Shown here piece after piece: positions 5,882 through 63,317 of a DNA stretch of 64,000 nt. The translations under genes were made by a program, and so were the position numbers. Within the stretch, counting starts at the first letter, position 1. The number at the start of each line of letters is the position of its first letter. This DNA is from Luteolibacter sp. GTDB lineage: Bacteria > Verrucomicrobiota > Verrucomicrobiia > Verrucomicrobiales > Akkermansiaceae. The stretch lies in contig JBPOGB010000002.1 in assembly GCA_051252155.1 (NCBI GenBank), forward strand, positions 297,125 to 361,124, in the 5' to 3' direction. The notes beneath the pieces are model-generated. The model worked only from the letters and a program-made list of their open reading frames with translations, was not told the origin of the DNA and made no database searches.

Positions 5882-5952
5882 GCCAAGGGCGCGAAAAAAC
5901 CCGGGGCTTGTGGCACCCGGGTTGAGATGTGGGGAGTTTTTCCCGCAGCGGA

Positions 5953-6237: not shown

Positions 6238-6405
6238 AGATAAGGGGAGTTGTTGGATGCGTTGCGCAAAGATTGGACGGATGCTTTCGGGGTTGGCAAG
6301 CCCGTCTTTGACTTTTCCGAGAAATAGATGCCTCTTTGCAAAAGCTGCATGCCCTTTCTCGCGCCGGGTTGTTGCGATTTTAAGTAAAATGTGTGAGATT
6401 CAGGT

Positions 6406-6849: not shown

Positions 6850-6987
6850 GACGTATAAGTCTCGACTCGATTTTAAGAAAATTATTGGAAATCAGTCGGT
6901 TTCTAGCCCTAAAGAAGAAAACTTTCTCTTTTATTCTTGAGATGTGCCATTTCGATGAGTTAAATGGGCTTAGGACTAACACCAACT

Positions 6988-8436: not shown

Positions 8437-8444
8437 CCACGACC

Positions 8445-9227
8445 GTGAAGCTCTCCGCCTTCATCTTCCTTCTCCTCACCTCCGCCATCCCGGCTGAAGA
8501 AACCGCTATCCCCGCCGAAATGGCGTATGTCGAGGGCGGAGAATACGTCCCGATGTTCGGCGAGAGTAAAAAACCACGCAGCGTCGATCCCTTCATCCTC
8601 GATCGTCTTCCGGTCACCAATTCCGCCTTCCTGGAATTCGTCCGCGAAAATCCGAAATGGCGTCGCTCACAAGTCGGCAAACTCTTCGCCGACCAAGGCT
8701 ACCTCTCCCATTGGGGAGCCGATCTCGAACTCGGCCCCAACGCCGCACCGGACGCTCCCGTCGTTCGCGTCTCATGGTTTGCCGCCCGTGCTTTCCTCAA
8801 GGCTCAGGACAAACGCCTGCCGCGCGAAGACGAATGGGAATTTGCCGCCCTCGCCGATGCCACACGCACCGACGCTTCAAAGGATCCCGCTTTTCTCAAG
8901 CGCATCCTCGATTGGTATGGAAAACCCAACTCCGGCCAGCTGCCTGATGTCTCAACGCTCACTCCTGACATTCGTGGCATCGCCGGTATGCACGCCGCTG
9001 TTTGGGAATGGGTCGAGGATTTCAACAACCAGATGGTCACCGGAGCGGCACGCGACGATACCACCCTCGATCGCTCCCTCTTCTGTGCCGGTGGCGCCCT
9101 CAATGCCACCGATGCCGCTAACTACGCCGCCTTCATGCGTTACGCCTTCCGCTCTAGTCTCGAAGGAAATTACACCACCAACAACCTCGGCTTCCGCGGC
9201 GCTCGCGATGCCACCACCGAACCCTGA
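8445..9227 (+). CDS. nirV: Formylglycine-generating-enzyme (SUMF1) family protein, NirV-like
   Basis: GTG start 8 nt after nirK. It has a signal peptide and FGE-sulfatase-type motifs (RLPREDEWEFAA, GNVWEW-like AAVWEWVED, NLGFRGARD). Its position directly downstream of nirK matches nirV. Confidence 0.75.
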   Translation: MKLSAFIFLLLTSAIPAEETAIPAEMAYVEGGEYVPMFGESKKPRSVDPFILDRLPVTNSAFLEFVRENPKWRRSQVGKLFADQGYLSHWGADLELGPNAAPDAPVVRVSWFAARAFLKAQDKRLPREDEWEFAALADATRTDASKDPAFLKRILDWYGKPNSGQLPDVSTLTPDIRGIAGMHAAVWEWVEDFNNQMVTGAARDDTTLDRSLFCAGGALNATDAANYAAFMRYAFRSSLEGNYTTNNLGFRGARDATTEP

Positions 9228-12328: not shown

Positions 12329-13675
12329 ATGAAATACAAAACACAAAAGATCGCTTACTGGTTCTTCGCATCCGCTCTCCTGCTGCTGGTGCTTCAGATC
12401 GTTTACGGCTTCATCATGGGCTTCGCCCACATGGGCTACGATGTCCTTCACGACTTCATCCCGTTCAACACCGCCCGCGCCGTCCACACGAACCTCCTCC
12501 TTGTCTGGCTCCTGCTCGGCTTCATGGGTTCCGCCTATTTCATCATCCCCGAGGAGGCGGAACGGGAAATCGCTTGGCCGAAACTCGCCTACGCGCAGTT
12601 GATCTCCTTCCTCGCAGTCGGTGTCACCGCCGTGGTCTGCTACCACATGAACATCTGGGAAGGTCGGAAATTCCTAGAAATCCCGCGGCCGCTCGACTAC
12701 CTAGTGGTTGCCAACGTGCTGCTTTTCCTAGCCAATGTCGGCTGGACCATGTGGAACGGCAAACGTTTCACCACCACATCCATCGTGCTCTACATGGGCC
12801 TGCTCGCTGCCGCACTGCTTTACTTGCCCGGCATGATCGATTTCGACAACCAGACTCTCGACTCCATGTATCGCTGGTGGGTTGTCCATCTTTGGGTGGA
12901 AGGCGTGTGGGAGCTCATCATGGGCGGCATCCTTTGCTTCCTACTCATCAAGCTTACCGGCGTGGATCGCGAAATCGTCGAAAAATGGCTCTACATCATC
13001 GTCGGCCTCACTTTCATCTCCGGCATCCTCGGCACCGGCCACCATTTCTACTACATCGGCGTGCCACGCTACTGGCTGATCGTCGGCGGTATCTTCTCCG
13101 CGCTTGAGCCACTCGCCTTCCTCGGCATGGCCTTGTATGCCCTCGCCATGGCGAAAAAAGGTGGCCGCAAGCACCCGAACAAAACCGCCCTCACCTGGAC
13201 GCTCGGTTGCGCCATCATGGCCTTCGTTGGTGCCGGCTTCCTCGGTATCGCCCACACCATTCCGCAAGTGAACATGTGGACGCACGGCACACTGGTCACC
13301 GCCATGCACGGCCACCTCGCATTCTGGGGTGCCTACGCAATGATCGTTTTCGCGATGATCGCCTACGCCATGCCGCTGATGACAGGCCGCAAACTATGGG
13401 ACAGCAATGCCTCCATCTACGGCTTCTGGCTTTCCAATATCGGCATGGTCGCCATGACGGGTGCCTTCGCTGTCGCAGGCATCAGCCAGGTCGTGCTCGA
13501 GCGCCGCACCGGCATCGACTTCATCGAGGTGCAGAAAGAGATCGAGCCGCATTTCCTCGGTCTCGTTCTCGCCGCCGGCCTTTTCACCCTCGGCATCCTG
13601 CTCTTCGTCCTGAACTTCATCCGCTACGGTCGCCCCACCGATGAGGCTCTCAACAACGACCCTGCCGAAAGTTGA
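12329..13675 (+). CDS. norB: Nitric oxide reductase subunit B (cNOR catalytic subunit)
   Basis: MKYKTQKIAYWFF... The WWVVHLWVEGVWE (conserved Glu pair) and GTGHHFYYIG motifs and 12 TM helices are present. Confidence 0.9.
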   Translation: MKYKTQKIAYWFFASALLLLVLQIVYGFIMGFAHMGYDVLHDFIPFNTARAVHTNLLLVWLLLGFMGSAYFIIPEEAEREIAWPKLAYAQLISFLAVGVTAVVCYHMNIWEGRKFLEIPRPLDYLVVANVLLFLANVGWTMWNGKRFTTTSIVLYMGLLAAALLYLPGMIDFDNQTLDSMYRWWVVHLWVEGVWELIMGGILCFLLIKLTGVDREIVEKWLYIIVGLTFISGILGTGHHFYYIGVPRYWLIVGGIFSALEPLAFLGMALYALAMAKKGGRKHPNKTALTWTLGCAIMAFVGAGFLGIAHTIPQVNMWTHGTLVTAMHGHLAFWGAYAMIVFAMIAYAMPLMTGRKLWDSNASIYGFWLSNIGMVAMTGAFAVAGISQVVLERRTGIDFIEVQKEIEPHFLGLVLAAGLFTLGILLFVLNFIRYGRPTDEALNNDPAES

Positions 13676-13686
13676 TCGCCTCATCC

Positions 13687-14460
13687 ATGGATACCCCGTT
13701 CTATCTGGCCTCCGGAAAGGAGATCGAGCTTTGCGAACACGCCCACCGCTGCCAGCTCCCGCTCATGCTCAAGGGGCCGACCGGTTGTGGGAAAACCCGT
13801 TTCGTCGAGCACATGGCCGCGCGTCTCGGGCGTGAACTCATTACCGTCGCCTGCAACGAAGACACCTCCGCCACCGATCTGTTAGGGCGGCATCTCTTGC
13901 AGGGTGGCGATACCGTCTGGGTCGATGGCCCCGTGACCCGCGCCGTACGGGAAGGTGCCATCCTCTACCTTGACGAAATCGCCGAAGCCCGCGCCGACGC
14001 CATCGTCGTCATTCACTCGCTCGCCGACCATAGACGTGAAATTTTCCTCGATCGCACCGGAGAGAAACTCAGCGCCGCCGAGGGATTTTCCCTCATCGTC
14101 AGCTACAACCCCGGCTACCAGCGCAGCCTGCGCGAGTTGAAACCATCGACCCGCCAACGCTTCGCCGCCATCCAGTTCGACTACCCGGACGAGGCAGCAG
14201 AGGTGAGCATCGTCACCACCGAATCCGGGGTCGACGAAGCCACCGCGAAAAAGCTCGTCCGCATCGGCGCGAAGATCCGCCAACTCACCGAACTCTCTCT
14301 GATGGAGTCGGTTTCCACCCGTTTGCTCATCGCAGCGGGCAAGCTCATCCAGTCCGGCATCACGCCGCGCCTGGCCTGCGTCACCGCCATCGCCCAGCCG
14401 CTCAGTGATGATGCCGAAGCCGTCGCCGCCATGCGGCAGGTCATCGAAATCAGCATCTGA
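13687..14460 (+). CDS. norQ: NorQ/CbbQ/NirQ MoxR-type AAA+ ATPase
   Basis: Walker A motif LKGPTGCGKT. The length and position after norB fit. The ORF track starts at a TTG (13672); the ATG at 13687 is preferred. Confidence 0.9.
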   Translation: MDTPFYLASGKEIELCEHAHRCQLPLMLKGPTGCGKTRFVEHMAARLGRELITVACNEDTSATDLLGRHLLQGGDTVWVDGPVTRAVREGAILYLDEIAEARADAIVVIHSLADHRREIFLDRTGEKLSAAEGFSLIVSYNPGYQRSLRELKPSTRQRFAAIQFDYPDEAAEVSIVTTESGVDEATAKKLVRIGAKIRQLTELSLMESVSTRLLIAAGKLIQSGITPRLACVTAIAQPLSDDAEAVAAMRQVIEISI

Positions 14461-14469
14461 CATGCAGCC

Positions 14470-16170
14470 ATGTTCGAGTGGGAAGAAAGCACGTTTCTCG
14501 GTTTAAAATCGCTCTACCAGCGCTTCGTTACCAAGCCTGAGCAACAGCAAATCGAGTCCCGCCAAGCCACTCTCAAGGAGCACCGCGGCTCGCTGATCCT
14601 GCTGGCGCGTATGCTTTCCGGGAAAAACCTCGGCATCTTCGAGACCCCGCATCCCATCCTCTGCACCGGAGATAGGATCTGCCTCCCGTCGGAATTCACA
14701 GAAGCCGATTCCCCGGAGTCGAACCGCCAGCTCTACGAGTTGAAAACCATCGTCGCCGCGCTCGCCATCCGCGATGATTGGGACGGTGATGACCTGCCCG
14801 CATACCTGAAAAAACTCTCCGTAGAATTTCCCCATCTCTCCGAAAAATCCGCCTCCATCGAGCAGCACTTGTTAGAGGAGATTTCCCTTTCAGAAATCCT
14901 TGGCGCACCCCGCGAGGACGCCACCAAAGCGGAAAAAAACGCCACGACTCCCACCCCGGACGATCACCAGACCAACGACTCCGAAGTCACCACCGAGATC
15001 GAGGGTAAAGGCCAGATGGATGTGGAAGTCCTGCTCGATCCCGGCGAAGACTGCGCCGGCGAGGACATGCCCACCCATACCTTCGAGAAAGCGGATACCC
15101 TGGAAGAAACCAGTGGCCTGAACCGCAAGCGCGACGACGAGGACGAACTCGAAGAGCACGCCGAAGCTCTCAAAGAAGTCAACATGACCCAGGTCATCCG
15201 CTCCCACGAACGCCCGCGCTCGATCTACCGCAGCGATGTCATCCTCGACGGACTGAACATCGAGGCCAACGACAGCGCCCCCGCCCACGGCATCCCATAC
15301 CCTGAGTGGGATTACAAAAAGCGCGCCTACAAGGAAGACTGGTGCCTGCTCCAGGAAACCCGCAACCGCGAGTCTCACCCGGATTGGATCGACGCCACCG
15401 AGAAAAAGCACGCGGCCCTCGTCGCCCGCCTCAAACGCCAGTTCGCCTCGCTAACTTCCGAATTTCTCAAACTCAAACGCCAGCCCAGCGGCAATGATTT
15501 CGACATCGACGCAGTCATCGATGGACAGGTTCGCCTCCGCAGCGGCCACACACCTTCCGAGTCCATCTACCTGAACCGCAAAAAAGACATCCACGATGTC
15601 TCCGCTATCCTCCTGTTAGATCTCAGCTTCTCCACCGATGCCTGGATCGATGATGCCCGCGTCCTAGATTCCATCATGGAAACCGTCTATTGCGTCGGCG
15701 AGGTCATCGGCGATTCCATCGAAAGCTTCGCCGTCGCAGGTTTTTCCTCAAACACGCGCCGCTCTTGCCGTTTCGAGATCCTTAAAGATTTTCACGAACC
15801 ATGGGATCAGGCGAAACAACATTTCGGCGCACTCCAGCCAAACGGCTACACCCGCATCGGCCCCGCCCTGCGCCACGCCCAGGAACTCCTCCTAAACCAA
15901 CAAGCCTCGCGGAAAATCGTCATCCTCGTCACCGACGGCCGCCCCTGCGACTACGATAGATATGAGGGCACCTACGGCATCAAGGACGTCCGCAAAGCCA
16001 TCGAGACCGGCAAGCTCCACGGCCTCACCACCCACGCCTTCGCCATCGAGAAGCAGGCGACCGAAACCTTTCCCATGATGTTCAGCCGCCACCATTTTGA
16101 TGTCGTTGGTACCCCGGCAAAACTCAGCCAAACCATGAGCGCCCTTTTCTCCAAACTCGTAGCCACATGA
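14470..16170 (+). CDS. norD: NorD (von Willebrand factor A domain protein)
   Basis: 566 aa. The C-terminal VWA domain has a MIDAS-like DLSFST motif, and the gene directly follows norQ. Confidence 0.85.
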   Translation: MFEWEESTFLGLKSLYQRFVTKPEQQQIESRQATLKEHRGSLILLARMLSGKNLGIFETPHPILCTGDRICLPSEFTEADSPESNRQLYELKTIVAALAIRDDWDGDDLPAYLKKLSVEFPHLSEKSASIEQHLLEEISLSEILGAPREDATKAEKNATTPTPDDHQTNDSEVTTEIEGKGQMDVEVLLDPGEDCAGEDMPTHTFEKADTLEETSGLNRKRDDEDELEEHAEALKEVNMTQVIRSHERPRSIYRSDVILDGLNIEANDSAPAHGIPYPEWDYKKRAYKEDWCLLQETRNRESHPDWIDATEKKHAALVARLKRQFASLTSEFLKLKRQPSGNDFDIDAVIDGQVRLRSGHTPSESIYLNRKKDIHDVSAILLLDLSFSTDAWIDDARVLDSIMETVYCVGEVIGDSIESFAVAGFSSNTRRSCRFEILKDFHEPWDQAKQHFGALQPNGYTRIGPALRHAQELLLNQQASRKIVILVTDGRPCDYDRYEGTYGIKDVRKAIETGKLHGLTTHAFAIEKQATETFPMMFSRHHFDVVGTPAKLSQTMSALFSKLVAT

Positions 16171-16745
16171 CCCAGGAAAAACTACCACCACCCTCCGCAC
16201 TTCTCTACCCACCTGGCGGCCTGCTGATCTGGTCGCTTGTCCTGATGGAGTTGCTTACCTTCGGTGTCGCTCTGATTGCCTTCGTCATTTCGGGTCGCAG
16301 TGAACCGGAAATTTTCCAAGCCGGTCGCGAGCATCTGAATTCTTATTTCGGCGTGGCCAATACCGTCTTCCTGCTCGCCAGTGGCTACTTCATGGCCGCC
16401 GCCGTCGAGCGGTTTAAAAAGGGCACGAACGCCCGCCCGCTCATCCACTGCGCCATGGTGGGTGGCATTCTTTTCCTCGTTCTCAAAGGAATCGAATATC
16501 ACGAGAAAATCGAATCCGGCCTAACCCTCGGCCACGACACTTTCTTGACCTACTACTGGCTTCTCACCGTCTTCCACCTGATGCATGTCCTCGTCGGCCT
16601 GATCATCCTCGCCGTCCTTCACCGCCGCCTCCGTCCCGCCGCCAAGACCATGCAACCCGAAGACTTCGAAGCCGGAGCCGTCTTCTGGCACATGTGCGAT
16701 CTCATCTGGCTTATCCTTTTCCCCGTAATCTATCTACTTCCATGA
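16167..16745 (+). CDS. norE: Cytochrome oxidase subunit III-like protein NorE
   Basis: ATGA overlap with the norD stop. It has 5 TM helices, and HEKIESG...FHLMHVLVG...FWHMCDLIWLILF is typical of the subunit III family. Confidence 0.8.
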   Translation: MTQEKLPPPSALLYPPGGLLIWSLVLMELLTFGVALIAFVISGRSEPEIFQAGREHLNSYFGVANTVFLLASGYFMAAAVERFKKGTNARPLIHCAMVGGILFLVLKGIEYHEKIESGLTLGHDTFLTYYWLLTVFHLMHVLVGLIILAVLHRRLRPAAKTMQPEDFEAGAVFWHMCDLIWLILFPVIYLLP

Positions 16746-53357: not shown

Positions 53358-56300
53358 ATGATTCGCTGGTTCGCCAAAAACGATATTGCCGCCAATTTCC
53401 TACTGTTCGGGATCTTGGCGTGGGGTGCGTGGTCTGCGGTGGAGAAGGTAGCGCTTGAGGTGCAGCCGGCCTTTGAGCAGCAGAGGATCGAAATACGCGT
53501 GGAATACCGGGGTGGCAGCCCGGCGGATACGGAAAAGGCGGTAGTTATACCCGTTGAGGCGGCACTGGAAGGGCTTTCTGGGGTGGAGATGGTGGAGTCA
53601 CGGGCGGGAGATGGAGGTGCAAAGATTACGGTATTTTCTGAATCCAAGTCGGGTCTAAAAGCGCTGCTTGAGGAAGTGAAGACGCGGGTGGAGCGCATTA
53701 ATTCCTTTCCTCCGGAAACTGAGCCGCCCGAAGTGCGAATTCCAGACAGCAGCCGTTGGTTTGATGTGATCAAGATCGCCGTCAGGGGTGATATGGGGGA
53801 GGAAGACTTACTGCGCGCGTCTCGCAAGGTGCGCGATGATTTGATCGCCATGCAGGGTATTTCCCAAGCGATCGTGTTAGGAAGCTCGCCTTTGGAAATT
53901 TCCATTGAGGCGGATCCTCAGCGATTGCGTGATTTTGGGCTGACTTTTGCGGATCTATCTTCGGCGATTCAGAGATCCTCGATAGATCTTCCGGCGGGTC
54001 GTATCCAGACTGATGAGGGTGCGCTGACGATTCGTTCTAAGGGGCAGGCCTACACGCGGGAGGACTTTGAAAGTATCGTGATCAAGAATCGGAGTGGTTC
54101 CGAGGTGACTGTTGGCACGGTGGCGACGGTTACTGACGGCTTTGAAGAGGAGAAAAAGATCATGCATTTTAACGGCAAGCGCTGCCTGCTTATCGAGGTG
54201 CTGCGGCTAGGCGATGAAAACGCGTTAGAAATTGCCGATAAGGTGAAAACTTATGTGGCGTCTGCACCACAGCGTTTTCCAGAAGGCATTTCGCTAGCGG
54301 TGTGGGACGATTCTTCGGAGGAACTGGAGGGTCGCTTGGGCACGCTGATGACTTCGATGCTTCAGGGCGGGTTGCTGGTTTTAATCGTGCTCGGTTTGTT
54401 TCTCCGACCTATGCTGGCGATTTGGGTGATTATGGGTATCCCGGTCGCCTTCGCAGGTGGCTTTATCATGATGCCTTACTTCGGCATCACCGCGAATGTG
54501 ATGTCCATTTTCGGCTTCATTATCGTGATTGGGCTGGTGGTGGACGATGCGATCGTCACTGCAGAAAATGTCTATTACAAGCTGGGCACTGGGATGGATC
54601 CTCTGGATGCGGCGACTGAAGGGACGGCAGAGGTGGCGACTCCGGTGACCTTCGGGGTGATCACGACCATCGTCGCTTTCGTGCCGCTGATGTTCTTCGA
54701 TGGGTTCTACGGATCTTTCACAAGGCAGATACCGCCTATCGTTGCTGCGGTGCTGATTTTCTCACTGATCGAGACGAAGTTCGCGCTGCCGTGCCATCTC
54801 AAGCATGTGAAGGTACACAGGAAGAGTTTGAATGGCCTTGAGCGAGTTCAGAAGCGTATCGCAGGAAGTCTAGAGAAATTCGTGGAAAAATTCTACGAGC
54901 CGACGTTGCGTATCGCGACAAATCACCGCTACATCACGCTCTCTCTATTCCTTGCGGTGGGCATGGCTTCGTTGGGTTATTTTACCTCAGGGAGAATGGG
55001 ATTTGTGAACATGCCTTCCATCGATAGGAATCGCATTTTCGCGATGGTTCAGATGCCTAGAGAGACGAAGATCGAGAAGACTGAAGTACGCACGCAGTTT
55101 GTGGCGGATGCGGTGGAGGAATTGAAGAAGGAGTTCATCGATCCAGGCACGGGTAAATCCGTAATTACGGATGTGCTTACGTCATCAGGTGGCTCGGCGG
55201 GTCGCAACAACATTGATCCAGATGAGGGATTTGTAGTGATAGGCATCACAGATCCGGGGAAACGTAGTGAACCGGGGCCGAAGAATAGCGAGATTGCCCA
55301 GAGGTGGACGGAGTTGGTGGGGGAAATGCCTGACGTGCGGAACTTTTATGTTTCAGGTGACCAAGGCCATGGCAAGGGTACAGACGATGAGCTGGAATCG
55401 CTGCAGGTGGAGATTCGTGGTCCGGACGGTGAGGATAAGGATGAGCTCGTTCGTGAGGTAGAGGAACTTATTGAATCGTATGAAGGTATCGCAGGTGCTT
55501 GGAGTAATTCTGGCGGAGATAGCGACGAACTTCTCATTACCATTCGCCCCGAGGGAGAGGCGTTGGGGCTGACGCAGCGTGAGTTATCACGTCAGGTGCG
55601 TGGTGCATTTTTTGGAGAGCAAGCGCAACGTGTGCGCAGGGAGAGGGATGACATTCGTGTGATGGTGCGCCTGCCGCTTGAGCAGCGTGAGTCACTTGCG
55701 ACACTGGAGACTTTGCGCATCCGCACTCCATCTGGAGGAGAGGCTCCGTTTTATACCGTGGCCACGGCGATTTATGGGAAAGCGCGGTCTAGAATTGAGC
55801 GGATCGATGGAGCGCAGGTTGCTTCTGTGGCCGCGAAGCCGGTTGATGAGACGGTTGATGTGGTGGCTATCTCTCGAGCCCTTGCGCCTGAGATCGACAA
55901 GCTTGTGAATCAACACCGTGACCTTTCATGGCGTTACCGTGGCTATGTGGCGGATCATGAAGAGACGAAGAAGCGCTCGCTCTATGGTGGGCTGGCTCTG
56001 TTCTTTGTATTGTATGCGCTGTTGGCGATACCTTTCCGTTCGCTCTACCAACCGTTCTTCGTGATGCTGGCCGTACCCTTCGGTGCGATTGGCGCGCTCT
56101 TCGGGCACATTTTATTAGGCATTACGCCATCTTACCTCTCGATTTTCGGAATCCTTGCGCTGGCGGGTGTGGTGGTGAACGACTCGCTGGTGATGGTGGA
56201 TTTCATCAACAAGAAAGTCCGTGCAGGCGAGGATCTCAGGACGGCAGTGATTGAGTCCGGGACAAGGCGTTTCCGTCCTATCTTCCTGACGTCGCTTACG

Positions 56301-56564
56301 ACTTTCGTGGGACTGTTACCCTTGCTGTTTGATCGATCCCTGCAGGCGCAATTCCTCATTCCGATGGCGACCTCGCTGGCATTCGGTATTCTGTTTGCGA
56401 CGGCGATTACGCTCTATTTGATCCCCTCTGCCTATGTGGTAGCTGAGGAAATCCGTGAACTACTAGGAAAGGCGTGGGTCTGGTGGCGTTACCCAGGTGG
56501 GCGTCCGGAAAAAGAAACACAGCCCGAGGAAAGCGTTCCAGGGGCTGCGGTGGAAGAGGTGTGA
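53358..56564 (+). CDS. RND efflux transporter permease (AcrB/HAE family)
   Basis: 1068 aa with a 12-TM, two-large-loop layout and typical motifs (MIRWFAKNDIAANFL..., GLVVDDAIV, VVNDSLVMVDF). Confidence 0.9.
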   Translation: MIRWFAKNDIAANFLLFGILAWGAWSAVEKVALEVQPAFEQQRIEIRVEYRGGSPADTEKAVVIPVEAALEGLSGVEMVESRAGDGGAKITVFSESKSGLKALLEEVKTRVERINSFPPETEPPEVRIPDSSRWFDVIKIAVRGDMGEEDLLRASRKVRDDLIAMQGISQAIVLGSSPLEISIEADPQRLRDFGLTFADLSSAIQRSSIDLPAGRIQTDEGALTIRSKGQAYTREDFESIVIKNRSGSEVTVGTVATVTDGFEEEKKIMHFNGKRCLLIEVLRLGDENALEIADKVKTYVASAPQRFPEGISLAVWDDSSEELEGRLGTLMTSMLQGGLLVLIVLGLFLRPMLAIWVIMGIPVAFAGGFIMMPYFGITANVMSIFGFIIVIGLVVDDAIVTAENVYYKLGTGMDPLDAATEGTAEVATPVTFGVITTIVAFVPLMFFDGFYGSFTRQIPPIVAAVLIFSLIETKFALPCHLKHVKVHRKSLNGLERVQKRIAGSLEKFVEKFYEPTLRIATNHRYITLSLFLAVGMASLGYFTSGRMGFVNMPSIDRNRIFAMVQMPRETKIEKTEVRTQFVADAVEELKKEFIDPGTGKSVITDVLTSSGGSAGRNNIDPDEGFVVIGITDPGKRSEPGPKNSEIAQRWTELVGEMPDVRNFYVSGDQGHGKGTDDELESLQVEIRGPDGEDKDELVREVEELIESYEGIAGAWSNSGGDSDELLITIRPEGEALGLTQRELSRQVRGAFFGEQAQRVRRERDDIRVMVRLPLEQRESLATLETLRIRTPSGGEAPFYTVATAIYGKARSRIERIDGAQVASVAAKPVDETVDVVAISRALAPEIDKLVNQHRDLSWRYRGYVADHEETKKRSLYGGLALFFVLYALLAIPFRSLYQPFFVMLAVPFGAIGALFGHILLGITPSYLSIFGILALAGVVVNDSLVMVDFINKKVRAGEDLRTAVIESGTRRFRPIFLTSLTTFVGLLPLLFDRSLQAQFLIPMATSLAFGILFATAITLYLIPSAYVVAEEIRELLGKAWVWWRYPGGRPEKETQPEESVPGAAVEEV

Positions 56565-56569
56565 ATTCC

Positions 56570-57007
56570 TTATGCCGCTTCGCCTTGTGCCTGGATCATG
56601 ACGCCAGCAAGTGTGGTGTATGTGATTGTCCAAGCTTCTTTGGCTTCAGGGGTGAATTCCTCGCCAAGGCCTTTTGCTAGGGTGTCGAGAAGTGCTGCGC
56701 CGACGGTATCGTAGTGCTCAGGCTTCACACCGTAGCCGTTGTGGCGTTTGCCAAGAGCGGCGACGGCGGGCACGAGTTCGCCAAGCGAATCGAGGCCCTT
56801 CACGGCGGCTCCGATCATCTGCATGAGCTTCTTGCCCTGCTCTTTCATGTCGGAGTTTGCGAAAAGCGGTTTCACGGAGGGATCGAGTTCGAAGAGCTTG
56901 CCGTAAAATAGGGTGGCTGCGGTGTCTGCGATAGGCACGACCTTTTCCCAGCTGCCTTGGACGAGTTCTTTTTGATGTGTGGTCAATGGACCGGATTCTG
57001 TGCTCAT
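56570..57007 (-). CDS. Single-domain globin (no signal peptide)
   Basis: 145 aa. LTTHQKELVQGSWEKV...LFYGKLFELDPSVKPLF...LGKRHNGYGVKPEHYDTVG fits the 3-on-3 bacterial globin pattern, with the proximal His in GKRH. Confidence 0.8.
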   Translation of the reverse strand: MSTESGPLTTHQKELVQGSWEKVVPIADTAATLFYGKLFELDPSVKPLFANSDMKEQGKKLMQMIGAAVKGLDSLGELVPAVAALGKRHNGYGVKPEHYDTVGAALLDTLAKGLGEEFTPEAKEAWTITYTTLAGVMIQAQGEAA

Positions 57008-57047
57008 GGTTTCGTAGTGTTGTTTTTTGTTGGTGAAATAGGGTGGG

Positions 57048-57455
57048 TTATTTGGGGGTTGCGATCATGTAGAGGACGGCGTTTGTGACCTCTATGTCGG
57101 TGAGCGAGGGTGTGCCACCGCGTGCGGGCATTTCCCCGTCTTCGCCGTTGAAGCCGTTGATGGCATGGGAGATGAGAGTGGGTTCTCCTTTCTGAATGCG
57201 TTCCTCCCACTCGTCCTTGCGGGTGAGTGCGGGGGACGCCTCCTCGCCTTCGTTGTGGCATAGCGAGCACTCCGCCATATAGATCTCGCGCCCGGCGAGG
57301 AGCGCAGGATCATCAGGGATCCAGTCCCAGGGTTCCGGGTGCTCTTCCTTTTCAGGAGTGGAAGGCGCCCCGGCATCCTGTCCGCCTTTTTGGCAGGATG
57401 CGGATATGAAAACGCAAATGCAGGCGGACAGGATGACAGGGAACCGTAATTTCAT
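57048..57455 (-). CDS. Mono-heme class I cytochrome c lipoprotein
   Basis: It has a lipobox (FISASC), the heme site CSLCHNEG and a distal EMPARGG Met segment. Confidence 0.8.
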   Translation of the reverse strand: MKLRFPVILSACICVFISASCQKGGQDAGAPSTPEKEEHPEPWDWIPDDPALLAGREIYMAECSLCHNEGEEASPALTRKDEWEERIQKGEPTLISHAINGFNGEDGEMPARGGTPSLTDIEVTNAVLYMIATPK

Positions 57456-57464
57456 GATCAGGTG

Positions 57465-58085
57465 TTAGTTGCCGGTTGGTATGCGGATGACGATGCCTCC
57501 CATGACGTCGCCTTTTTTGAACTCAGGAAAGGATTCCTGACGGTTTTCGTGCTCGTTGTGGCACACCCAGCAAGCGGGGGCGACGGCGCGATCCGGGTAG
57601 ATGCCGACGAAGTATTCGGTGCCGGCGATGGTCTCGGTGCTTGTCCACTTCTTGCCGTAAAATTCGCTGTCAGGATCGGAAACAGCGTCAAGGCCTTCCT
57701 CGACGGCGGGCGTCTTTTTCTTGGCATTCTCCATGTTGAGCGGCCACTTGGACTGAAGGGAGTAGGAGAACTCGAAGGGCTTCTCCGAGGCGTCCACTTC
57801 CTCCGCGCCTTCGCGGAACATTTGTGCAGGGAGAAGAAGGGCTTTTTCCTCCTGCCATTCTTCATGTGCCTTGATCACGCCTTCCTCATTGACGAGGCGG
57901 TTGACGACCTTGCTGGCGTAGACCTTGCGGTCGGACTTGAGGACGGTGTAGAGGGCTTCCGCCACCAGTTCCGCATCGTATCCGCCTGAGGTTGAGGCTT
58001 CGGCTTCTTTTTTCCCGCAGGAGCTGAGGCTCCCGAGGGCTATCGCTGCGGCCGGTAGGGCGGCCCATGTGTATTTCAGTTTCAT
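57465..58085 (-). CDS. DUF3365 (Tll0287-like) c-type heme lipoprotein
   Basis: It has a lipobox (LGSLSSC) and a C-terminal CWVCHNEHEN...GDVMGGIVIRIP typical of DUF3365 heme proteins. Confidence 0.7.
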   Translation of the reverse strand: MKLKYTWAALPAAAIALGSLSSCGKKEAEASTSGGYDAELVAEALYTVLKSDRKVYASKVVNRLVNEEGVIKAHEEWQEEKALLLPAQMFREGAEEVDASEKPFEFSYSLQSKWPLNMENAKKKTPAVEEGLDAVSDPDSEFYGKKWTSTETIAGTEYFVGIYPDRAVAPACWVCHNEHENRQESFPEFKKGDVMGGIVIRIPTGN

Positions 58086-58097
58086 TGTATTCTGTTT

Positions 58098-59537
58098 CTA
58101 TTTGGTTTCGTTCGCTGGTTCAGGGTTTTCAGTGGGAGAGGATTCTGCGGAGAGGCTTTCGAGGTAGGCCTTGAGCTCAATGATGCGTTCGTCGCCGCGT
58201 GAGATGGCGGCCTCTGCGGCCATGTCGATGCCGCCGTGGTGGGCAGAGGGATTGCCGGAGAAATTGGCACCGATGAGCTTGGTGTCGGCCATCGAGTCCA
58301 TGGCGAACTGCATGCCGTGGCATTCAATACAGACGTTCTGGAGCATCTTGTCGTTTGGTGTGAGGTTGGCGTTCTGGTTGTGGTTTGGGGCGAAATGCTT
58401 GCCGTCTTTCTCACGTGGCATGTGGCAAGTGGCACAGGATACGCCGGTACCGGGAGCACCTGTTCCGGCTAGCTCGGCCTGCCAGAGCTTCGCGTGCGGC
58501 GAGGTGGCGTAGTTTTTCGTGTGTTCGTCGTCGTGGCATTTCACGCAGGCCTGCTGTGCGGCGAATTGGCGATCGGTTGTGTGCGGGTCGTGGCAAGAGC
58601 TGCAGGAGAGCGCATCGTGGGCGGCTGATTCCTTCATCGGGCGGCGCGCCTCGGCAGGTGTCATTGGCGGCAGGTTGGGGAAGTTGAGGCGCATACCGTG
58701 TTTACCTTTGAGGAAACCTTCGACCTCGCCGTCGTGGCAGGAGGCACAGGAGGTGTGGTCGGGCTTTTCGATCCATTTCTCGCCTTCGCCATGGCAGTCC
58801 GTGCAGTTGATGCCGGCGGCGGCGTGGGCGCTTTCGTGCCATGAGGCGTTGATCTCCGGGGTCTTGGATTTTGCCGGGGCGTCGGCCTCTTCGGGTGCGA
58901 GGGGGGGGCGTGCGGTATTGCCATCGGCGATCCAGCGGGCGAGCGCGAAGGTGAGTGGGACGGTTTGTTCTTCGAGATTCGCTGGCTCCGCGTAGTGCTT
59001 GCGCAGGAAGCTCGGCGAGAGCATGCGGTTGTCGTGGTAGTTGTGGCAGCCGGTGGTGGCGCAAGAGTTGAAGGGAAGGGATTTGTGCGAATCGAGGTTC
59101 TCCAGAGTCATTTCATGACAATGGGCGCAGTAGTCAGGCGGGATGGTGACGCCCATGTCGCCGGTGATCTTCTCGTTGTGCTCGCGGTGGCAGGTGACGC
59201 ACTGCAAGGCATCGATGTGTTGGGTGAAGATGGCGTTTTCCGGGTTCTTGAATTTCCGGACGGGGTGTGAATCGCTGGCGGCTTCGAGGTCTTCGCTATG
59301 GCATTTGTTGCAGGATTTGTTCGAGACGCCGGAAGCGGTGAAGATGTTTTCTTGAGGCTCTTGGTCGTGGCAGGCTGAGCATTCCAGCTCGATCTGGTAG
59401 TGGCCGTGGGTGGTCTTGCCGGGGAGGAAGGCGGACTTGTCATCCGACTCTTTCAGGACATAGCCGTAGTATACCGCGATGGCTGCGGTAAGTAGCAGCC
59501 ATAGGGCGGGGGTGATGATTTTCCGGGGACGTATCAC
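58098..59537 (-). CDS. Membrane-anchored multiheme cytochrome c (10 CxxCH + 1 CxxxxCH)
   Basis: The start is reassigned to the GTG at 59537-59535, which shares one base with the upstream TAG (TAGTG). It has an N-terminal TM helix (ITPALWLLLTAAIAVYYGYVL). The heme motifs are CSACH, CNKCH, CVTCH, CAHCH, CATTGCH, CTDCH, CASCH, CSSCH, CVKCH, CATCH and CIECH. Confidence 0.8.
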   Translation of the reverse strand: MIRPRKIITPALWLLLTAAIAVYYGYVLKESDDKSAFLPGKTTHGHYQIELECSACHDQEPQENIFTASGVSNKSCNKCHSEDLEAASDSHPVRKFKNPENAIFTQHIDALQCVTCHREHNEKITGDMGVTIPPDYCAHCHEMTLENLDSHKSLPFNSCATTGCHNYHDNRMLSPSFLRKHYAEPANLEEQTVPLTFALARWIADGNTARPPLAPEEADAPAKSKTPEINASWHESAHAAAGINCTDCHGEGEKWIEKPDHTSCASCHDGEVEGFLKGKHGMRLNFPNLPPMTPAEARRPMKESAAHDALSCSSCHDPHTTDRQFAAQQACVKCHDDEHTKNYATSPHAKLWQAELAGTGAPGTGVSCATCHMPREKDGKHFAPNHNQNANLTPNDKMLQNVCIECHGMQFAMDSMADTKLIGANFSGNPSAHHGGIDMAAEAAISRGDERIIELKAYLESLSAESSPTENPEPANETK

Positions 59538-61549
59538 TAGTAGAGGTAAACGGAGAGAATGTGGAAAACGAGGAGCGCGGGTAGCGGCCAGAAGAGGACG
59601 AAATGCGCGTAGGTGAGCGCCGGGCGGATACGGCGTGCGCGCAGGGCGAGGTCTTCGCTGCCTTTGCTTTCGAGGGCGGAAATGATGCCGGCGAGGGCGC
59701 CGAGGAGGTTCAGGCCGACGAATGAGAACATGAGCCAGAAGTTCAGGTTGTCCCCGAAGCGGAAGCCGGTGTGGGCGAAAAGAACGATGAGGGCGATGAC
59801 GCCGAAGACCGCGTGGAAGACACGCCATTTCGCGAAGTGGCCGAAGCGGAACCACTTGAAGCGTTTGCGCAGGGAGAGAAGAAGTCCAACTAGGCAGAGG
59901 GCGAGCAGTGAGTAGCCGGTGATCTGCTTGATGAGATTGTCTCGCCAGATTTCATCGATTTTATACCACCATGATTCCACAGAAGAGGCCATCGCGGGCG
60001 GGGCGAGAAAAATGGTCAGCAGGACGGCGATGAGAGCGATGGCGGAGGCGCTAATGAGCGAGCGATAGGCGATGGGGCGTGAGGTTTCTGCTTCAGGGTT
60101 GCAGAGTTTTTCTATCAACGGGCGGCAGGATCCGCAGACGGTGGAGGCACCGCAGCCTTTGGCGACTAGATCAGGATCGGCTCCGCACTTCGTCATGCAC
60201 TCCATGATCTCGCCTTTGCGTACGGTGAGGCAGTTGCATACGATGCGATCGTCCGGCCAGGCGTCGATGGAAGGCTGTTCGACGACGAGCTGTCCGGTAT
60301 TAGCGAACTCCAAGAGCTGTTTTTTAGGGATGCGGATTTTGCCGAGGAAGAGGCTTTGGATTTCCCCGGCTTCCGGCCACTCGCCGACGCCGAGTGCGCC
60401 GACGAGCTTGTGTTTGTGGTTGTAGCAGATGAGCCGGTAGGAGCTGGCGCTGGAGAATTCGATGGTGGTTCCCTGCTGGAGCGGGGAACCGATGGATACA
60501 ACATCGGCACCAGCCATCTTGAGGCGGGTGGAGAGATCAGGTGGCGGGAGGGATTCCACGGTTTTCCCTGCGATTATTTCGGCCAGCAGGGCGGCCATGG
60601 CGTAGCCGGGCGCGGCGAGGCCGTAGATGCGGCCATGTAGCTGAGCGCACTCGCCGATGGCGAAGATCGAGGGATCCGAGGAGGTGAGGAAATCATCGAC
60701 GATGATGCCGCCGCGCATGCCGAGCTTGATACCGGACTCCTTGAGGAAAGCGGTGGCCGGGACGATGCCGGTGGCGACCATGATCATGTCTGCGGTCGCT
60801 GAGGTTTTGTCTTGGAAACCGACGGTGAGTTTGCCGTCTTCCTCTTGCTTCAAGGTCTTACTGGCCTTGAGGTAATTGATTTTGATGCCTTTTTCGCGAA
60901 CTGTCTGGTCAAGGCGTTGGGCAGCGGATTGGTTCAGTTGCTGAGGCATCAGGAAGGCGGAGCGTTCCATGATCCGAGCTTCCATGCCGAGATCGCGTGC
61001 CACCTGTGCTGCCTCAAGCCCCAGCAGCCCGCCGCCGATGATCAAGGCCGAGGATTTACCTTCGGCATCCGAGATGATGCCCTCCATATCCTTGATGGTG
61101 CGGTAAACATGAATTCCAGGAACTGGCTGATCGAAGGGTGCAGGGACGAAGGGACGTGATCCGGTGGCGATGACCAGATAGTCGTAACAAAAAACCTCGG
61201 TTCCGTTGGTGTGGACGGCTTTTAGTTCGCGGTCGATATTTGTGGCAGCAAGCCCGGTGTGGAGGGTGATTCCATTTTCAGTGAACCAGCTGCGAGCTTT
61301 GAGTTCGAGCTTCGCGGGATCGCGGTGGGAGGCTAGATCGGAGAGATGGATGCGGTCGTAGGCGGGTTGCGGTTCATCCCCGACGACATCGATGGAGCAA
61401 TGGTTTGTGAGTTTCAGCTGCGCGAGATGCTCGCAAAATTTCTGACCGACCATGCCGTTGCCGAGGACGACAATGCGTGTTCCCGCCTTTGGTCGGTCGA
61501 GCCGAAAGGTGCGTGCCTTGGGCTTTATGGTTCGTGCAATGATGCTCAT
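59537..61549 (-). CDS. NirB-N-terminal-like FAD/NAD(P)H oxidoreductase + BFD-type [2Fe-2S] domain fused to a 5-TM bis-histidine (ferric-reductase/cytochrome b-like) membrane domain
   Basis: It has two dinucleotide folds (VVLGNGMVGQKF, LIIGGGLLGLEAA) and FAIGECA. The BFD motif is CNCLTV...GCGASTVCGSCRPLIEKLC. Five C-terminal TM helices follow, with FHAVFGVIALIVLFAH and AHFVLFWPLPALLVFH (each His-x13-His). Confidence 0.8.
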   Translation of the reverse strand: MSIIARTIKPKARTFRLDRPKAGTRIVVLGNGMVGQKFCEHLAQLKLTNHCSIDVVGDEPQPAYDRIHLSDLASHRDPAKLELKARSWFTENGITLHTGLAATNIDRELKAVHTNGTEVFCYDYLVIATGSRPFVPAPFDQPVPGIHVYRTIKDMEGIISDAEGKSSALIIGGGLLGLEAAQVARDLGMEARIMERSAFLMPQQLNQSAAQRLDQTVREKGIKINYLKASKTLKQEEDGKLTVGFQDKTSATADMIMVATGIVPATAFLKESGIKLGMRGGIIVDDFLTSSDPSIFAIGECAQLHGRIYGLAAPGYAMAALLAEIIAGKTVESLPPPDLSTRLKMAGADVVSIGSPLQQGTTIEFSSASSYRLICYNHKHKLVGALGVGEWPEAGEIQSLFLGKIRIPKKQLLEFANTGQLVVEQPSIDAWPDDRIVCNCLTVRKGEIMECMTKCGADPDLVAKGCGASTVCGSCRPLIEKLCNPEAETSRPIAYRSLISASAIALIAVLLTIFLAPPAMASSVESWWYKIDEIWRDNLIKQITGYSLLALCLVGLLLSLRKRFKWFRFGHFAKWRVFHAVFGVIALIVLFAHTGFRFGDNLNFWLMFSFVGLNLLGALAGIISALESKGSEDLALRARRIRPALTYAHFVLFWPLPALLVFHILSVYLY

Positions 61550-61643
61550 CCGCTCTGATCCGTCTCAAAGGATCGGATTAGCAGCGGGTGTTCCTAGCGA
61601 AGGATGTGCCCGAAGGAGGGGCTGAAAGGCTTTCGCGCAGGTA

Positions 61644-61658
61644 ATGAGCTTAGCTCAT
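61644..61658. promoter_or_regulatory. Perfect 7-1-7 palindrome ATGAGCT-T-AGCTCAT about 95-110 nt upstream of the heme operon
   Basis: Read directly from the sequence in the 210-nt intergenic region upstream of the ATG at 61549 (minus strand). Confidence 0.25.
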
Positions 61659-61759: not shown

Positions 61760-62554
61760 CTAAGCGAAAAATTCCACAAGCGCTTCCACAACGCCGTGTC
61801 CGGCAGTCCGCTGCGTGACCATGCCGCCGCGTGATTCGACAAGGGTGCGGATGTCGGCGACAGCGTTGATGGGGCAAGCAGCGAAAGCGGAGTGATCTGC
61901 AGAGAGCATCTCGATGTCGTTGTGGCTGTCTCCTGCTGCGAAGGTGTGCTCGGTGCCGAGTTCGTAGAGGCGGGCAACTTCTGACAATGTACTGCCTTTC
62001 TGGTAGTTCTTATGGCCGAAGCGGAGGTAGATCGAGTTTCGCTGCCAACCGAGATTTGGCACTTCTGCAACGATCGGGGTGATGTGAGCGACGATCCATT
62101 CCATTTCCTCCTCGGTGCGCGAGATGAGTCCAGCGGGTTCGCCATCGATCTCAATGTATTGCGCCCCTGTGTGTTCTTCAATCTCGTGACGGATGACTTT
62201 GAGGGTCTTCTTCGCCTTTTTGAAAAGCTTGTGGATGTCCTTCTCGCAGCGCTTGTTCCAGTCATTGTGCGGGAGGTAACGGCCGAAGCTGTTGGGGAAA
62301 TGGATTTCCCGCTCACGGGCGACCACCCAATCTGGGATGAATGGGAAATTGCTCTCGATGAATCCCTCGACGAGCTGTGGCATCGAACGGCCCGTGTTGA
62401 TTCCCCAGACGGCGTTTCGAGTTTCGCGCAGGCGGCGGATAGTCTCGAAGAAAGATGTGGGGACGGGTGGGTTGTCTGCAGGGTCATGCAGCGTGCCATC
62501 GAAATCGAAGGAAAGGATCAGTTCAGGCTTCGGGCAGGCGTCCAGCGTTCTCAC
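61760..62554 (-). CDS. HAD-IIB (Cof/SPP-like) family phosphatase
   Basis: It has the DxD motif ILSFDFDGTL and downstream GINTGRS and GDSHNDIEML motifs. Confidence 0.8.
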   Translation of the reverse strand: MRTLDACPKPELILSFDFDGTLHDPADNPPVPTSFFETIRRLRETRNAVWGINTGRSMPQLVEGFIESNFPFIPDWVVAREREIHFPNSFGRYLPHNDWNKRCEKDIHKLFKKAKKTLKVIRHEIEEHTGAQYIEIDGEPAGLISRTEEEMEWIVAHITPIVAEVPNLGWQRNSIYLRFGHKNYQKGSTLSEVARLYELGTEHTFAAGDSHNDIEMLSADHSAFAACPINAVADIRTLVESRGGMVTQRTAGHGVVEALVEFFA

Positions 62555-62599
62555 GAGGGGAAGCTACAGGGAAACGGGCGGGGGGCAAGGGCGGGGGCA

Positions 62600-62697
62600 A
62601 GGAGAAGGGTCCGTCTCGGCCCTAGCGAAGAATCCGGATTTGCATCGGCTCTTCGAAAAGATCTATCCTCTGCTAGAGCCGGGACGGACTCTTCTCC
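62600..62697. repeat. REP doublet 1: 26-nt REP in inverted orientation (62600-62625 and 62672-62697)
   Basis: GGAGAAGGGTCCGTCTCGGCCCTAGC versus GCTAGAGCCGGGACGGACTCTTCTCC. By hand count 23 of 26 positions are complementary, and the spacer is 46 nt. Confidence 0.8.
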
Positions 62698-62699
62698 TT

Positions 62700-63317
62700 A
62701 TGTTCCTCGATCCTGAAAAGCCCATCGACAAACGAAAGGGAAATTTGCCGCACTGGCATCAGGACGATACGTGGGTTTTCGTTACTTGGAGGCTAGCGGA
62801 TTCGTTGCCTGAGGAAGTGGTCGCGAAGATTTCAAACGAAAGAGAAGAGTGGGAAAGGTCTCATCCGAAACCTTGGGACTCGGAAGACATGAAGGAATAC
62901 AACCGGCTTTTTACCCTTCGTTTCGAATCGTTACTCGACGATTGCCACGGCTCATGTTGTTTGCGTGATCCGATGGTGAGGAAGGTTGTCACCGGTTCGC
63001 TTCATCATTTTGATGGGGATCGATACGATCTCGATTGCTATGTGGCGATGCCGAATCACGTCCATGTGCTCTTCTCGATTCGCGAGGGTCATTCGCTTTC
63101 GGAAATCATGCATGGTTGGAAAAGTTTCACTGCGCATGAAATTCGGAAGATCATTGGAGGCGAGGGAGCGTTGTGGCAGCGCGAATATTGGGATCGGCTG
63201 ATGCGCTCGCAGAAGCATTTTGATTGGGTGAGGAGGTATATTGAGGAGAATTCTGTGAACCTTTCGGAGGGGAGTTTTGATTTTTACGATAAAGAGAAGG
63301 GTTCGTCCCGACCCTAG
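62700..63317 (+). CDS. REP-associated tyrosine transposase (RAYT, IS200-like Y1 transposase family)
   Basis: The ATG at 62700 gives a 205-aa protein. The HUH motif is PNHVHVLF and the Tyr segment is GALWQREYWDRLMRS. The stop codon TAG lies inside REP copy A2. Confidence 0.8.
   Translation: MFLDPEKPIDKRKGNLPHWHQDDTWVFVTWRLADSLPEEVVAKISNEREEWERSHPKPWDSEDMKEYNRLFTLRFESLLDDCHGSCCLRDPMVRKVVTGSLHHFDGDRYDLDCYVAMPNHVHVLFSIREGHSLSEIMHGWKSFTAHEIRKIIGGEGALWQREYWDRLMRSQKHFDWVRRYIEENSVNLSEGSFDFYDKEKGSSRP

Follow-up and report, generated by a model that had tools for sequence, protein, structure and literature searches.

What kind of electron-transfer system is encoded when a NirB-type flavoprotein, a multihaem cytochrome c, two monohaem lipoproteins and a globin occupy a single gene cluster? 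The question is raised by five genes, here named G1 to G5, in a 64,000-nucleotide stretch of the genome of a Luteolibacter sp. (contig JBPOGB010000002.1, positions 297,125 to 361,124; the whole stretch is called the window below). We propose that the five proteins make up a quinone-independent electron exporter driven by reduced nicotinamide adenine dinucleotide (NADH), which would serve the removal of a small reactive molecule, with nitric oxide (NO) as the first candidate. Taken as a whole, this is the best explanation that we can offer, and its chance is put at slightly short of even. Its two components differ in strength: the architecture, an exporter feeding a haem wire, is probable, and the role in NO detoxification is tentative.

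The input end of the proposed chain is G1, whose N-terminal part corresponds to the front half of NirB. The NirB model TIGR02374 is matched by G1 at model positions 1-470 of 794 (E 9.4e-111). In a Foldseek search with the whole AlphaFold2 (AF2) model of G1, the flavoprotein part dominates the matches, and the top ones are NADH:ferredoxin/rubredoxin reductases such as 4emi (E 3e-28); the flavin module belongs to the same family as NorW. The identification of G1 as a true NirB was rejected, since its scores lie under the family cut-offs (371.6 vs 578.35 bits for TIGR02374 and 303.9 vs 883 for NF011565), the sirohaem/[4Fe-4S] half is lacking, and residues 495-670 are transmembrane helices. Full-length homologues of about 670 residues were found in several phyla, and invariance was measured on 35 homologues with 38-82% identity to G1; the invariance of the G2 residues described below was measured on 35 homologues of G2. 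The cysteines of the BFD-type [2Fe-2S] domain (C438, C440, C472 and C475) and the Rossmann residues G172, G174, G177 and E195 are invariant. As a general rule for Rossmann folds, a glutamate at the end of the second strand goes with a preference for NADH, and E195, which closes this strand in G1, suggests NADH rather than NADPH as the donor.

Four further invariant residues, the histidines H579, H593, H649 and H663, are located in the membrane domain. In the AF2 model (mean predicted local distance difference test score, pLDDT, 84.6), five helices follow residue 495 (495-514, 538-562, 572-594, 602-627 and 633-669); H579 and H593 lie on the third and H649 and H663 on the fifth, with 14 residues between the members of each pair. 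Two histidine pairs about 14 residues apart on two helices are the classical sign of two b haems stacked across a membrane, and the model and the conserved residues of G1 would fit two such haems, which we treat as putative. The basic stretches SLRKR and RARRIR in the G1 loops mark these loops as probably cytoplasmic, so that the C-terminus would lie outside. At E<=1, Pfam gave no family for the membrane domain but noise only, with no Ferric_reduct match, and a sequence profile search of the PDB found no relative, only spurious transporter matches. In addition, an exhaustive search for which the membrane domain (186 residues) was the query recovered only 590 clusters (50% identity) from 1.84 billion representative proteins; almost all of these are proteins about 640-690 residues long that carry the domain C-terminally, or fragments of such proteins.

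Two longer matches to the membrane domain provide new evidence on how the parts are connected. In these proteins, EF-hands or three cyclic nucleotide monophosphate (cNMP)-binding domains are followed by BFD, by FAD_binding_6 and NAD_binding_1 (an FNR-type dehydrogenase) and by the membrane domain; the corresponding genes are included in Table 1. G2 orthologues come after the variant G1 genes (40-43% identity, E ~1e-115), and in locus L038, where the contig continues, a G3 orthologue (46% identity) is next. Thus, the constant unit consists of BFD, the membrane domain, G2 and G3, and the NAD(P)H-flavin input is exchangeable and open to regulation. As G2 and G3 are kept after the input has been swapped, the membrane domain would take electrons from a cytoplasmic flavin/iron-sulfur module and hand them to G2, and this module swapping strongly supports a NOX-like electron exporter that feeds a haem wire. 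The variants with EF-hands present a NOX5-like logic in bacteria.

The wire itself would be G2. Its eleven haem motifs, ten CXXCH and one CX4CH (CATTGCH), are all invariant, together with 12 additional histidines, which for 11 haems are enough for bis-His ligation throughout and leave no obvious open site. An N-terminal hydrophobic helix (5-30) is predicted with high confidence; the structure model is otherwise mediocre (pLDDT 68.8), with a poor N-terminal third. Pfam reports Cytochrom_c3_2 (E 8e-18), and the curated cut-offs of DmsE (TIGR03508; 50.5 vs 192.2) and HmcA (24.8 vs 400) are missed, as is that of PF02335 for NrfA (18.1 vs 24.1). A profile of the G2 family matches octahaem and pentahaem nitrite reductases (E 2e-9), with only the last two haems aligned, and no CXXCK motif, the mark of a Lys-ligated catalytic haem, occurs in G2 or in the 35 homologues. 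The best Foldseek match is the hydroxylamine oxidoreductase HAO (6t5e), at E 2e-3, template modelling (TM) scores of 0.29/0.32 and a root-mean-square deviation of 16 A from a model of pLDDT 68.8; an HAO-like octahaem protein is also among the best fold matches, and TM scores to NrfA or TvNiR structures are at most 0.12. The NapC/NirT family is absent from the Pfam and NCBIfam matches at E<=0.01. NrfA, ONR, DmsE, HmcA and NapC are therefore rejected on thresholds, motifs and fold; HAO is disfavoured, the 12 additional histidines arguing against an open site such as the five-coordinate catalytic haem with a Tyr cross-link in that family. G2 most likely represents a distinct undecahaem family with a distant root in the NrfA/HAO superfamily that functions as a wire. 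The "undecahaem" protein UetJ of Tenderiales belongs to an unrelated system.

In the databases, the G2 orthologues P0144, P0195, P0208, P0225 and P0240 carry the names "NrfA" or "ammonia-forming cytochrome c nitrite reductase", and the G1 orthologues P0071, P0086 and P0114 are named "nitrite reductase (NADH) large subunit". Neither name is borne out by the family tests, and "NrfA" in particular is over-annotation.

Two small lipoproteins follow the wire. G3 passes the threshold of PF11845 (Tll0287-like, formerly DUF3365; 51.3 vs 24.1 bits) and has the lipobox LSSC. Its CXXCH residues C172, C175 and H176 are invariant, within the motif CxxCHNxH (H179), and a second invariant motif, GDVMGG, contains M195. 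No cysteine beyond those of the lipobox and CXXCH is conserved among G3 orthologues, so no axial cysteine is conserved. G3 orthologues of Verrucomicrobiota, Myxococcota and Phycisphaerae have the lipobox; those from the Hyphomicrobiales and Omnitrophota loci carry an ordinary signal peptide in its place. Searches against the solved Tll0287 and GSU0582 structures gave no matches with either a single sequence or a 13-sequence profile, and the position equivalent to the axial cysteine is therefore not mappable in G3. The Tll0287/DUF3365 family has been reclassified as haem-bearing Cache domains, in which a Cys/His-ligated stand-alone sCache_haem member behaves as a redox protein and a member lacking the axial cysteine binds NO with an affinity comparable to that of H-NOX or NosP (bioRxiv 10.64898/2026.02.01.703092). 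G3 itself may be the ligand-reactive end of the chain. G4 matches Cytochrome_CBB3 (E 4.8e-11, 43.3 vs a cut-off of 27) and also Cytochrom_C, and its CXXCH (C63, C66, H67) and distal methionine (M109-P110) are invariant. Both G3 and G4 have Gly or Gln at position +2.

The last gene encodes a globin (Pfam Globin, E 1.9e-20) with no signal peptide in its sequence. The best PDB match of G5 is 3S1I, HGb-I of Methylacidiphilum infernorum (E 3.8e-29, 44% identity over 126 residues), with which TyrB10, GlnE7 and HisF8 are aligned and kept; neuroglobins, Vitreoscilla haemoglobin and the globin domains of flavohaemoglobins come next. G5 matches only model positions 4-137 of 399 of the flavohaemoglobin Hmp (NF009805; 82.9 vs 432 bits), and as it scores below the cut-off and lacks the fused FNR-like reductase, its identification as Hmp was rejected. 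Among the matches listed, G5 orthologues from more than 100 clusters are 73-100% identical, which suggests strong constraint, possibly exerted through protein contacts. The best 120 matches of the globin search were all close orthologues, and the gene context of HGb-I was not reached among them. HGb-I, from a verrucomicrobial methanotroph, has been described as a globin of high O2 affinity and low potential with lipid- and pH-dependent coordination (PMC11203436).

The cluster is conserved well beyond Luteolibacter. A genome scan with G1, limited to one genome per species, gave nine full-length G1 loci, with G2 and then G3 in the same order in all nine; look-ups for the loci of distant G1 homologues added Omnitrophota, Phycisphaeraceae, Pirellulaceae and more Verrucomicrobiota. 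The order G1-G2-G3-(G4)-G5 is found in Verrucomicrobiota, Omnitrophota, Phycisphaerae, Pirellulaceae, Myxococcota and Hyphomicrobiales, that is, the same gene order at 17 independent loci in six lineages. G2 and G3 follow G1 at every one (17/17), and among the 16 loci that could be judged, the globin is present in 15 and G4 in 11; in the Myxococcota locus the globin gene lies upstream on the opposite strand. The conserved core thus comprises four genes (G1, G2, G3 and the globin), with G4 as an accessory member. At the genome-scan loci, G5 is the best conserved (52-88% identity), followed by G3, G2, G1 and G4. As the module is kept over at least six lineages and survives replacement of the dehydrogenase, its parts form one unit. 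Clustering of all flanking open reading frames (ORFs) revealed no recurrent neighbour except a HAD hydrolase at three Verrucomicrobial loci. Cultured hosts include Luteolibacter sp. AS25, L. marinus, Roseibacillus persicicus and Haloferula helveola. The genome scan also picked up Niabella loci, which match G1 residues 25-484 only and represent ordinary NirB.

Several neighbours are particular to single loci or to a few. In L029 (Omnitrophota, 12942-16608) and L035 (Verrucomicrobiota, 5122-8648), the globin gene is followed by genes for a lipoprotein of 186-194 residues, ResB and CcsA, of which the last two belong to system II cytochrome c maturation; the two lipoproteins are homologous (30% identity, E 2e-30), and HemA is next after ResB/CcsA in L029. 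A 186-residue protein of the chlorite-dismutase family (PF06778) is encoded directly after the globin in L030 (Phycisphaerae, 12773-13333), and a second protein of this family at the end of L029 (17632-17998); this protein is a possible partner, for haem biosynthesis or of the Cld-like kind. Genes for an NrtABC-like ABC transporter (NMT1_2, BPD_transp_1 and two ABC_tran) and an Alginate_exp-type porin lie directly upstream in L030 (1543-7859), an arrangement that hints, from one locus, at a connection with nitrogen oxyanions. L033 (6028-13297) has an IclR-type regulator upstream and, downstream, a convergent gene for a 663-residue protein with five CXXCH motifs and faint FixO-like matches.

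Much of this picture was anticipated in a preliminary description made from the letters of the window. It had recognised a NirB-type flavoprotein with BFD and a membrane domain of five transmembrane helices, which Pyr_redox_2, Fer2_BFD, NirB positions 1-470 and the five AF2 helices bear out; a membrane-anchored cytochrome with 11 haem motifs; and a DUF3365 lipoprotein, a cytochrome c lipoprotein and a signal-less globin, with which our domain calls agree. Its count of 13 c-haem motifs (11 in G2 and one each in G3 and G4) holds, and its two putative b-haem sites coincide with the four invariant histidines of G1. Profile hidden Markov model searches placed neither G1 nor G2 in a characterised enzyme family, and across the Planctomycetota-Verrucomicrobiota-Chlamydiota group and other genomes the five genes are co-conserved over several phyla, with G4 at the frequency given above. 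The statement that no recognisable terminal enzyme is present stands as far as family matches are concerned, but is weakened if G3 is the ligand-reactive end. The gene combination had been described as uncharacterised, and no published description of the cluster was found in the literature.

In the mechanism that we propose, NADH would reduce flavin adenine dinucleotide (FAD) in G1 and electrons would then pass to the BFD [2Fe-2S] centre, as in the front half of NirB. In the place of the sirohaem domain, they would enter first the inner and then the outer b haem, held by helices 3 and 5, and be transferred at the outer face to G2, in which the conservation pattern is compatible with bis-His ligation of the eleven c haems. 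G2 would pass them to G3 and/or, where present, to G4. This course from NAD(P)H to a periplasmic haem wire, already put forward in the preliminary description, fits the invariant ligands, the cross-phylum synteny and the swapped input module. Since the path bypasses the quinone pool and shows no evident coupling site, energy conservation is not its likely purpose, and we propose a role in defence or repair. Known NAD(P)H exporters that bypass quinones, such as NOX and MsrQ, usually serve defence or repair and are rare in bacteria. The exported reductant would be used to remove a small reactive molecule from the periplasm, NO being our first candidate and O2-derived oxidants the second, and the co-inherited globin would deal with this molecule in the cytoplasm, where G1 would probably serve as its reductase. 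By analogy, NO is pointed to, weakly, by the lack of an axial cysteine in G3, by the TyrB10/GlnE7 pair of a globin related to Hmp and Vgb, and by the NorW/NirB-type flavin module. A wider reading, in which G1 founds a new family of bacterial transmembrane NAD(P)H oxidoreductases within a two-compartment defence against NO (or O2 and reactive oxygen species, ROS) and does double duty, supplying a haem wire whose last member is a ligand-reactive Cache haem and reducing the globin, appears rather unlikely at present.

Several points weigh against the proposal and in particular against NO as the substrate. L033 has no globin, no gene for an NO-responsive regulator lies beside any examined locus, and the neighbours vary widely. 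In G3, the invariant M195 and H179 could both fill the sixth haem position, and G3 is a stand-alone protein, as is the representative that was characterised as a redox protein and not as an NO binder (bioRxiv 10.64898/2026.02.01.703092). The properties reported for HGb-I, the closest characterised globin, are not NO chemistry (PMC11203436), and an Acinetobacter NorW-like flavoprotein did not reduce its cognate globin in vitro (PMC11836069). In addition, the N-terminal five-haem part of the G2 model has low confidence, so that the haem ligation of G2 is read from conservation alone.

Among the other explanations, the one that survives best, although we regard it as unlikely, is a respiratory or redox-balancing outlet that would deliver NADH electrons to an extracellular or outer-membrane acceptor (metals, humics or electrodes) or to a cbb3 oxidase, a peroxidase, NirS or NosZ. 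An anchored wire of eleven haems could span much of the periplasm, G3 and G4 could be placed at the outer membrane by their +2 residues, and G4 is a typical His/Met shuttle cytochrome; yet the cluster has neither a conserved outer-membrane porin nor a conserved outer decahaem partner, and G4 is dispensable, being missing from 5 of the 16 judged loci. The weak DmsE/MtrC-type matches in G2 are offset by a DmsE score far under its cut-off. The pentahaem cytochrome with faint FixO-like matches that adjoins the cluster in L033 would suit an outlet, but the near-universal and conserved cytoplasmic globin would be left without a role, and Luteolibacter, Roseibacillus and Haloferula isolates in culture are among the named hosts.

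Periplasmic defence against oxidative stress ranks next and is likewise improbable. Here H2O2, superoxide or damage of the HOCl type would be reduced at G3 or G4, much as in chains of the Fre/MsrQ-MsrP or cytochrome c peroxidase type, and the globin would scavenge O2 or ROS inside the cell. The quinone-bypassing design that conserves no energy is like that of MsrQ, and the Omnitrophota locus has a peroxiredoxin gene as its direct upstream neighbour, but this AhpC adjacency was found in one locus only, the cluster includes no peroxidase-type dihaem protein or Mo enzyme, and no OxyR/PerR-type regulator was found near the examined loci. The chemistry of related proteins is favourable, in that sCache_haem proteins autoxidise and readily make superoxide (bioRxiv 10.64898/2026.02.01.703092) and HGb-I has a very high O2 affinity (PMC11203436).

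A sensing device, in which G3 and the globin sense a gas or redox state that G1 and G2 set or report, is considered very unlikely. Cache_haem domains are mostly sensor modules (bioRxiv 10.64898/2026.02.01.703092) and the globin is the most conserved of the set, but none of the five proteins has a kinase, MCP, GGDEF or DNA-binding output, either fused or as a conserved companion, and eleven haems with an NADH dehydrogenase would be costly equipment for sensing alone. The regulatory domains of the variant G1 proteins (EF-hand or cNMP-binding), which could be taken as a sign of sensing, rather suggest that the exporter is regulated than that it is a regulator. Least probable is nitrite ammonification, or a reverse flow from a periplasmic donor that makes NAD(P)H, because the automated names, the alignment of the last two G2 haems with TvNiR/NrfA and the NrtABC-like transporter at one Phycisphaerae locus are outweighed by a G1 that lacks the sirohaem/[4Fe-4S] half and scores under NirB, by a G2 with no CXXCK, a sub-threshold PF02335 score and very low TM scores to NrfA and TvNiR, and, for the reverse flow, by a strongly uphill step from a His/Met cytochrome c to NAD+ (about -320 mV) with no coupling device.

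The arrangement of the genes is that of a compact operon (Table 1). The preliminary description had reported five co-directional minus-strand genes whose junctions are one overlap of 1 nt and three gaps of 12, 9 and 40 nt, all of which were reproduced from the ORFs: the GTG start of G2 and the TAG stop of G1 have 1 nt in common (taGTG), and the three gaps lie at G2-G3, G3-G4 and G4-G5, respectively. Its upper coordinate, 61658, required correction, as this is the edge of a palindrome and not a gene boundary; G1 starts at 61549, and 61550-61658 is leader/promoter DNA. The start assigned to G2 is matched by its homologues, which begin at the equivalent residue. No terminator-like site was found on the minus strand inside the cluster, all eleven in the region being on the plus strand, and the base composition of the operon is the same as that of the remainder of the window.

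Table 1. Positions of the operon, its parts and its leader elements (window coordinates), and of variant exporter genes at other loci.
Feature	Position	Strand	Description
G1	59537-61549	minus	670 aa; flavo-iron-sulfur dihaem-b membrane protein, b haems putative
G1, FAD/NADH two-Rossmann module	60632-61477 (residues 25-306)	minus	Pyr_redox_2, E 1.6e-49
G1, BFD-type [2Fe-2S] domain	60104-60244 (residues 436-482)	minus	Fer2_BFD
G1, membrane domain	59540-60067 (residues ~495-670)	minus	five predicted helices, two invariant His pairs
G2	58098-59537	minus	479 aa; N-terminally membrane-anchored undecahaem cytochrome c
G3	57465-58085	minus	206 aa; sCache_haem (Tll0287-like/DUF3365) monohaem lipoprotein
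G4	57048-57455	minus	135 aa; class I His/Met monohaem cytochrome c lipoprotein; accessory member
G5	56570-57007	minus	145 aa; cytoplasmic single-domain globin, Hell's Gate globin I / neuroglobin-like type
Leader hairpin (inverted repeat)	61554-61577	minus	ends 4 nt ahead of the G1 start codon
Perfect 15-bp palindrome ATGAGCTTAGCTCAT	61644-61658	none	~95-110 nt upstream of G1; candidate operator
Variant exporter genes	L036 6001-9042; L037 2187-5228; L038 704-3559		EF-hand/cNMP + BFD + FNR-type + membrane domain

Two elements in the leader may be concerned with regulation. The palindrome ATGAGCTTAGCTCAT has its sole exact match within the window at the position given in Table 1, and palindromes with a TGAG..CTCA core occur equally far ahead of the G1 start (-108 to -112) in the four Verrucomicrobial loci L001-L004; this element is probably an operator for some regulator. 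The folding of the leader hairpin exceeds that of shuffled sequences in the window (z = -2.0), in L001 (-3.7) and in L002 (-2.2), with no signal in L003 and L004, and the arm sequences vary from locus to locus; it may, on weak grounds, control the translation of G1. An Rfam search of the window matched no family, the leader features included, and motif patterns of FNR type and for sigma-54 gave a single match upstream of the loci, a sigma-54-like one in L025.

As for the surroundings, a gene for a HAD-family hydrolase (Hydrolase_3; 61760-62554, minus strand) lies directly upstream of G1 and also adjoins the cluster in L001 (79% identity) and L004 (41% identity), an adjacency that may reflect plain synteny or a loose association. 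An ORF just upstream of the operon region (62292-63317, plus strand) carries an IS200-like Y1 transposase domain (PF01797, E 4.5e-10) and resembles a REP-associated tyrosine transposase. On the other side, a 1068-residue RND/AcrB-like ORF (53358-56564, plus strand) is convergent with the globin gene, and as the two stop codons are 5 nt apart, there is no space for separate terminators.

If the wider reading is true, G1 would be the long-missing physiological reductase for single-domain bacterial globins, and stand-alone Cache_haem proteins would gain their first function. Establishing the function of the cluster would give roles to three orphans, namely the stand-alone Cache_haem proteins, the HGb-I-type globins and the membrane domain of G1, and the cultured hosts make the question experimentally tractable. 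In addition, correction of the names "NrfA" and "nitrite reductase" matters in its own right, as such names could inflate nitrogen-cycle inferences from metagenomes.

Comparison with known systems indicates which parts are familiar. G2 lies below the cut-off of TIGR03508 for DmsE/MtrA conduits, and no porin is conserved among the neighbours of the cluster. With TvNiR (2OT4), NrfA and HAO (6T5E), G2 shares a C-terminal dihaem unit, to which its last two haem motifs and the H-x-Q segment between them align, but it differs in having neither CXXCK nor a detectable catalytic region, in TM scores of 0.1-0.3, and in possessing eleven haems, a five-haem N-terminal extension and a membrane anchor. G3 is like Tll0287 (PDB 5B82) in passing the Pfam threshold, in its CXXCH and in being stand-alone, as about half of the family are. 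It differs from Tll0287 and the Pseudomonas putida protein in lacking their axial cysteine, and thus resembles the NO-binding signalling members, and it differs from sCache_haem proteins in general in being encoded within an electron-transfer operon. Similarly, no such operon has been reported for HGb-I (3S1I/3UBC).

The FAD/NADH and BFD modules of G1 are homologous to those of NirB, whereas the [4Fe-4S]-sirohaem half is replaced by the membrane domain. In Fre/MsrQ-MsrP and in CbcL and ImcH of Geobacter, a b-haem membrane protein sends reducing power outward to periplasmic redox proteins, and in CbcL a multihaem c domain is attached to a membrane domain with two b haems. These systems use quinol or a separate soluble flavin reductase, whereas the present operon has a fused NADH dehydrogenase and encodes its c-type wire in a gene of its own; no relationship to them in sequence was detected.

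The closest parallel in design is NOX, which combines, like G1, a cytoplasmic NAD(P)H-flavin module and two bis-His b-haem sites (putative in G1) in one polypeptide. In the NOX/ferric reductase superfamily (NOX5, SpNOX and csNOX5), the histidine pairs are 13-14 residues apart on two helices (PMC5676040, PMC11031084), and the N-terminal EF-hands of the G1 variants mirror the regulation of NOX5. The order of the domains is reversed, since in G1 the dehydrogenase comes first and the membrane domain last; the dehydrogenase is of the NirB/NorW type, with the FNR type in rare variants only; a BFD [2Fe-2S] domain is always inserted in the G1 family; and the membrane domain has five helices rather than six, with no match to Ferric_reduct (PF01794) at E<=1. 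Moreover, the outer haem would be paired with a dedicated multihaem cytochrome instead of reducing O2. In the wider reading, which we consider rather unlikely, the dihaem fold of G1, with its interchangeable input modules, would bear no sequence relation to that of NOX, MsrQ or cytochrome b561. In the main proposal, a known task, the transfer of reducing power from cytoplasmic NAD(P)H to the outside independently of quinones, would be performed with other parts: half of NirB, BFD, a membrane domain without described relatives and an eleven-haem wire.

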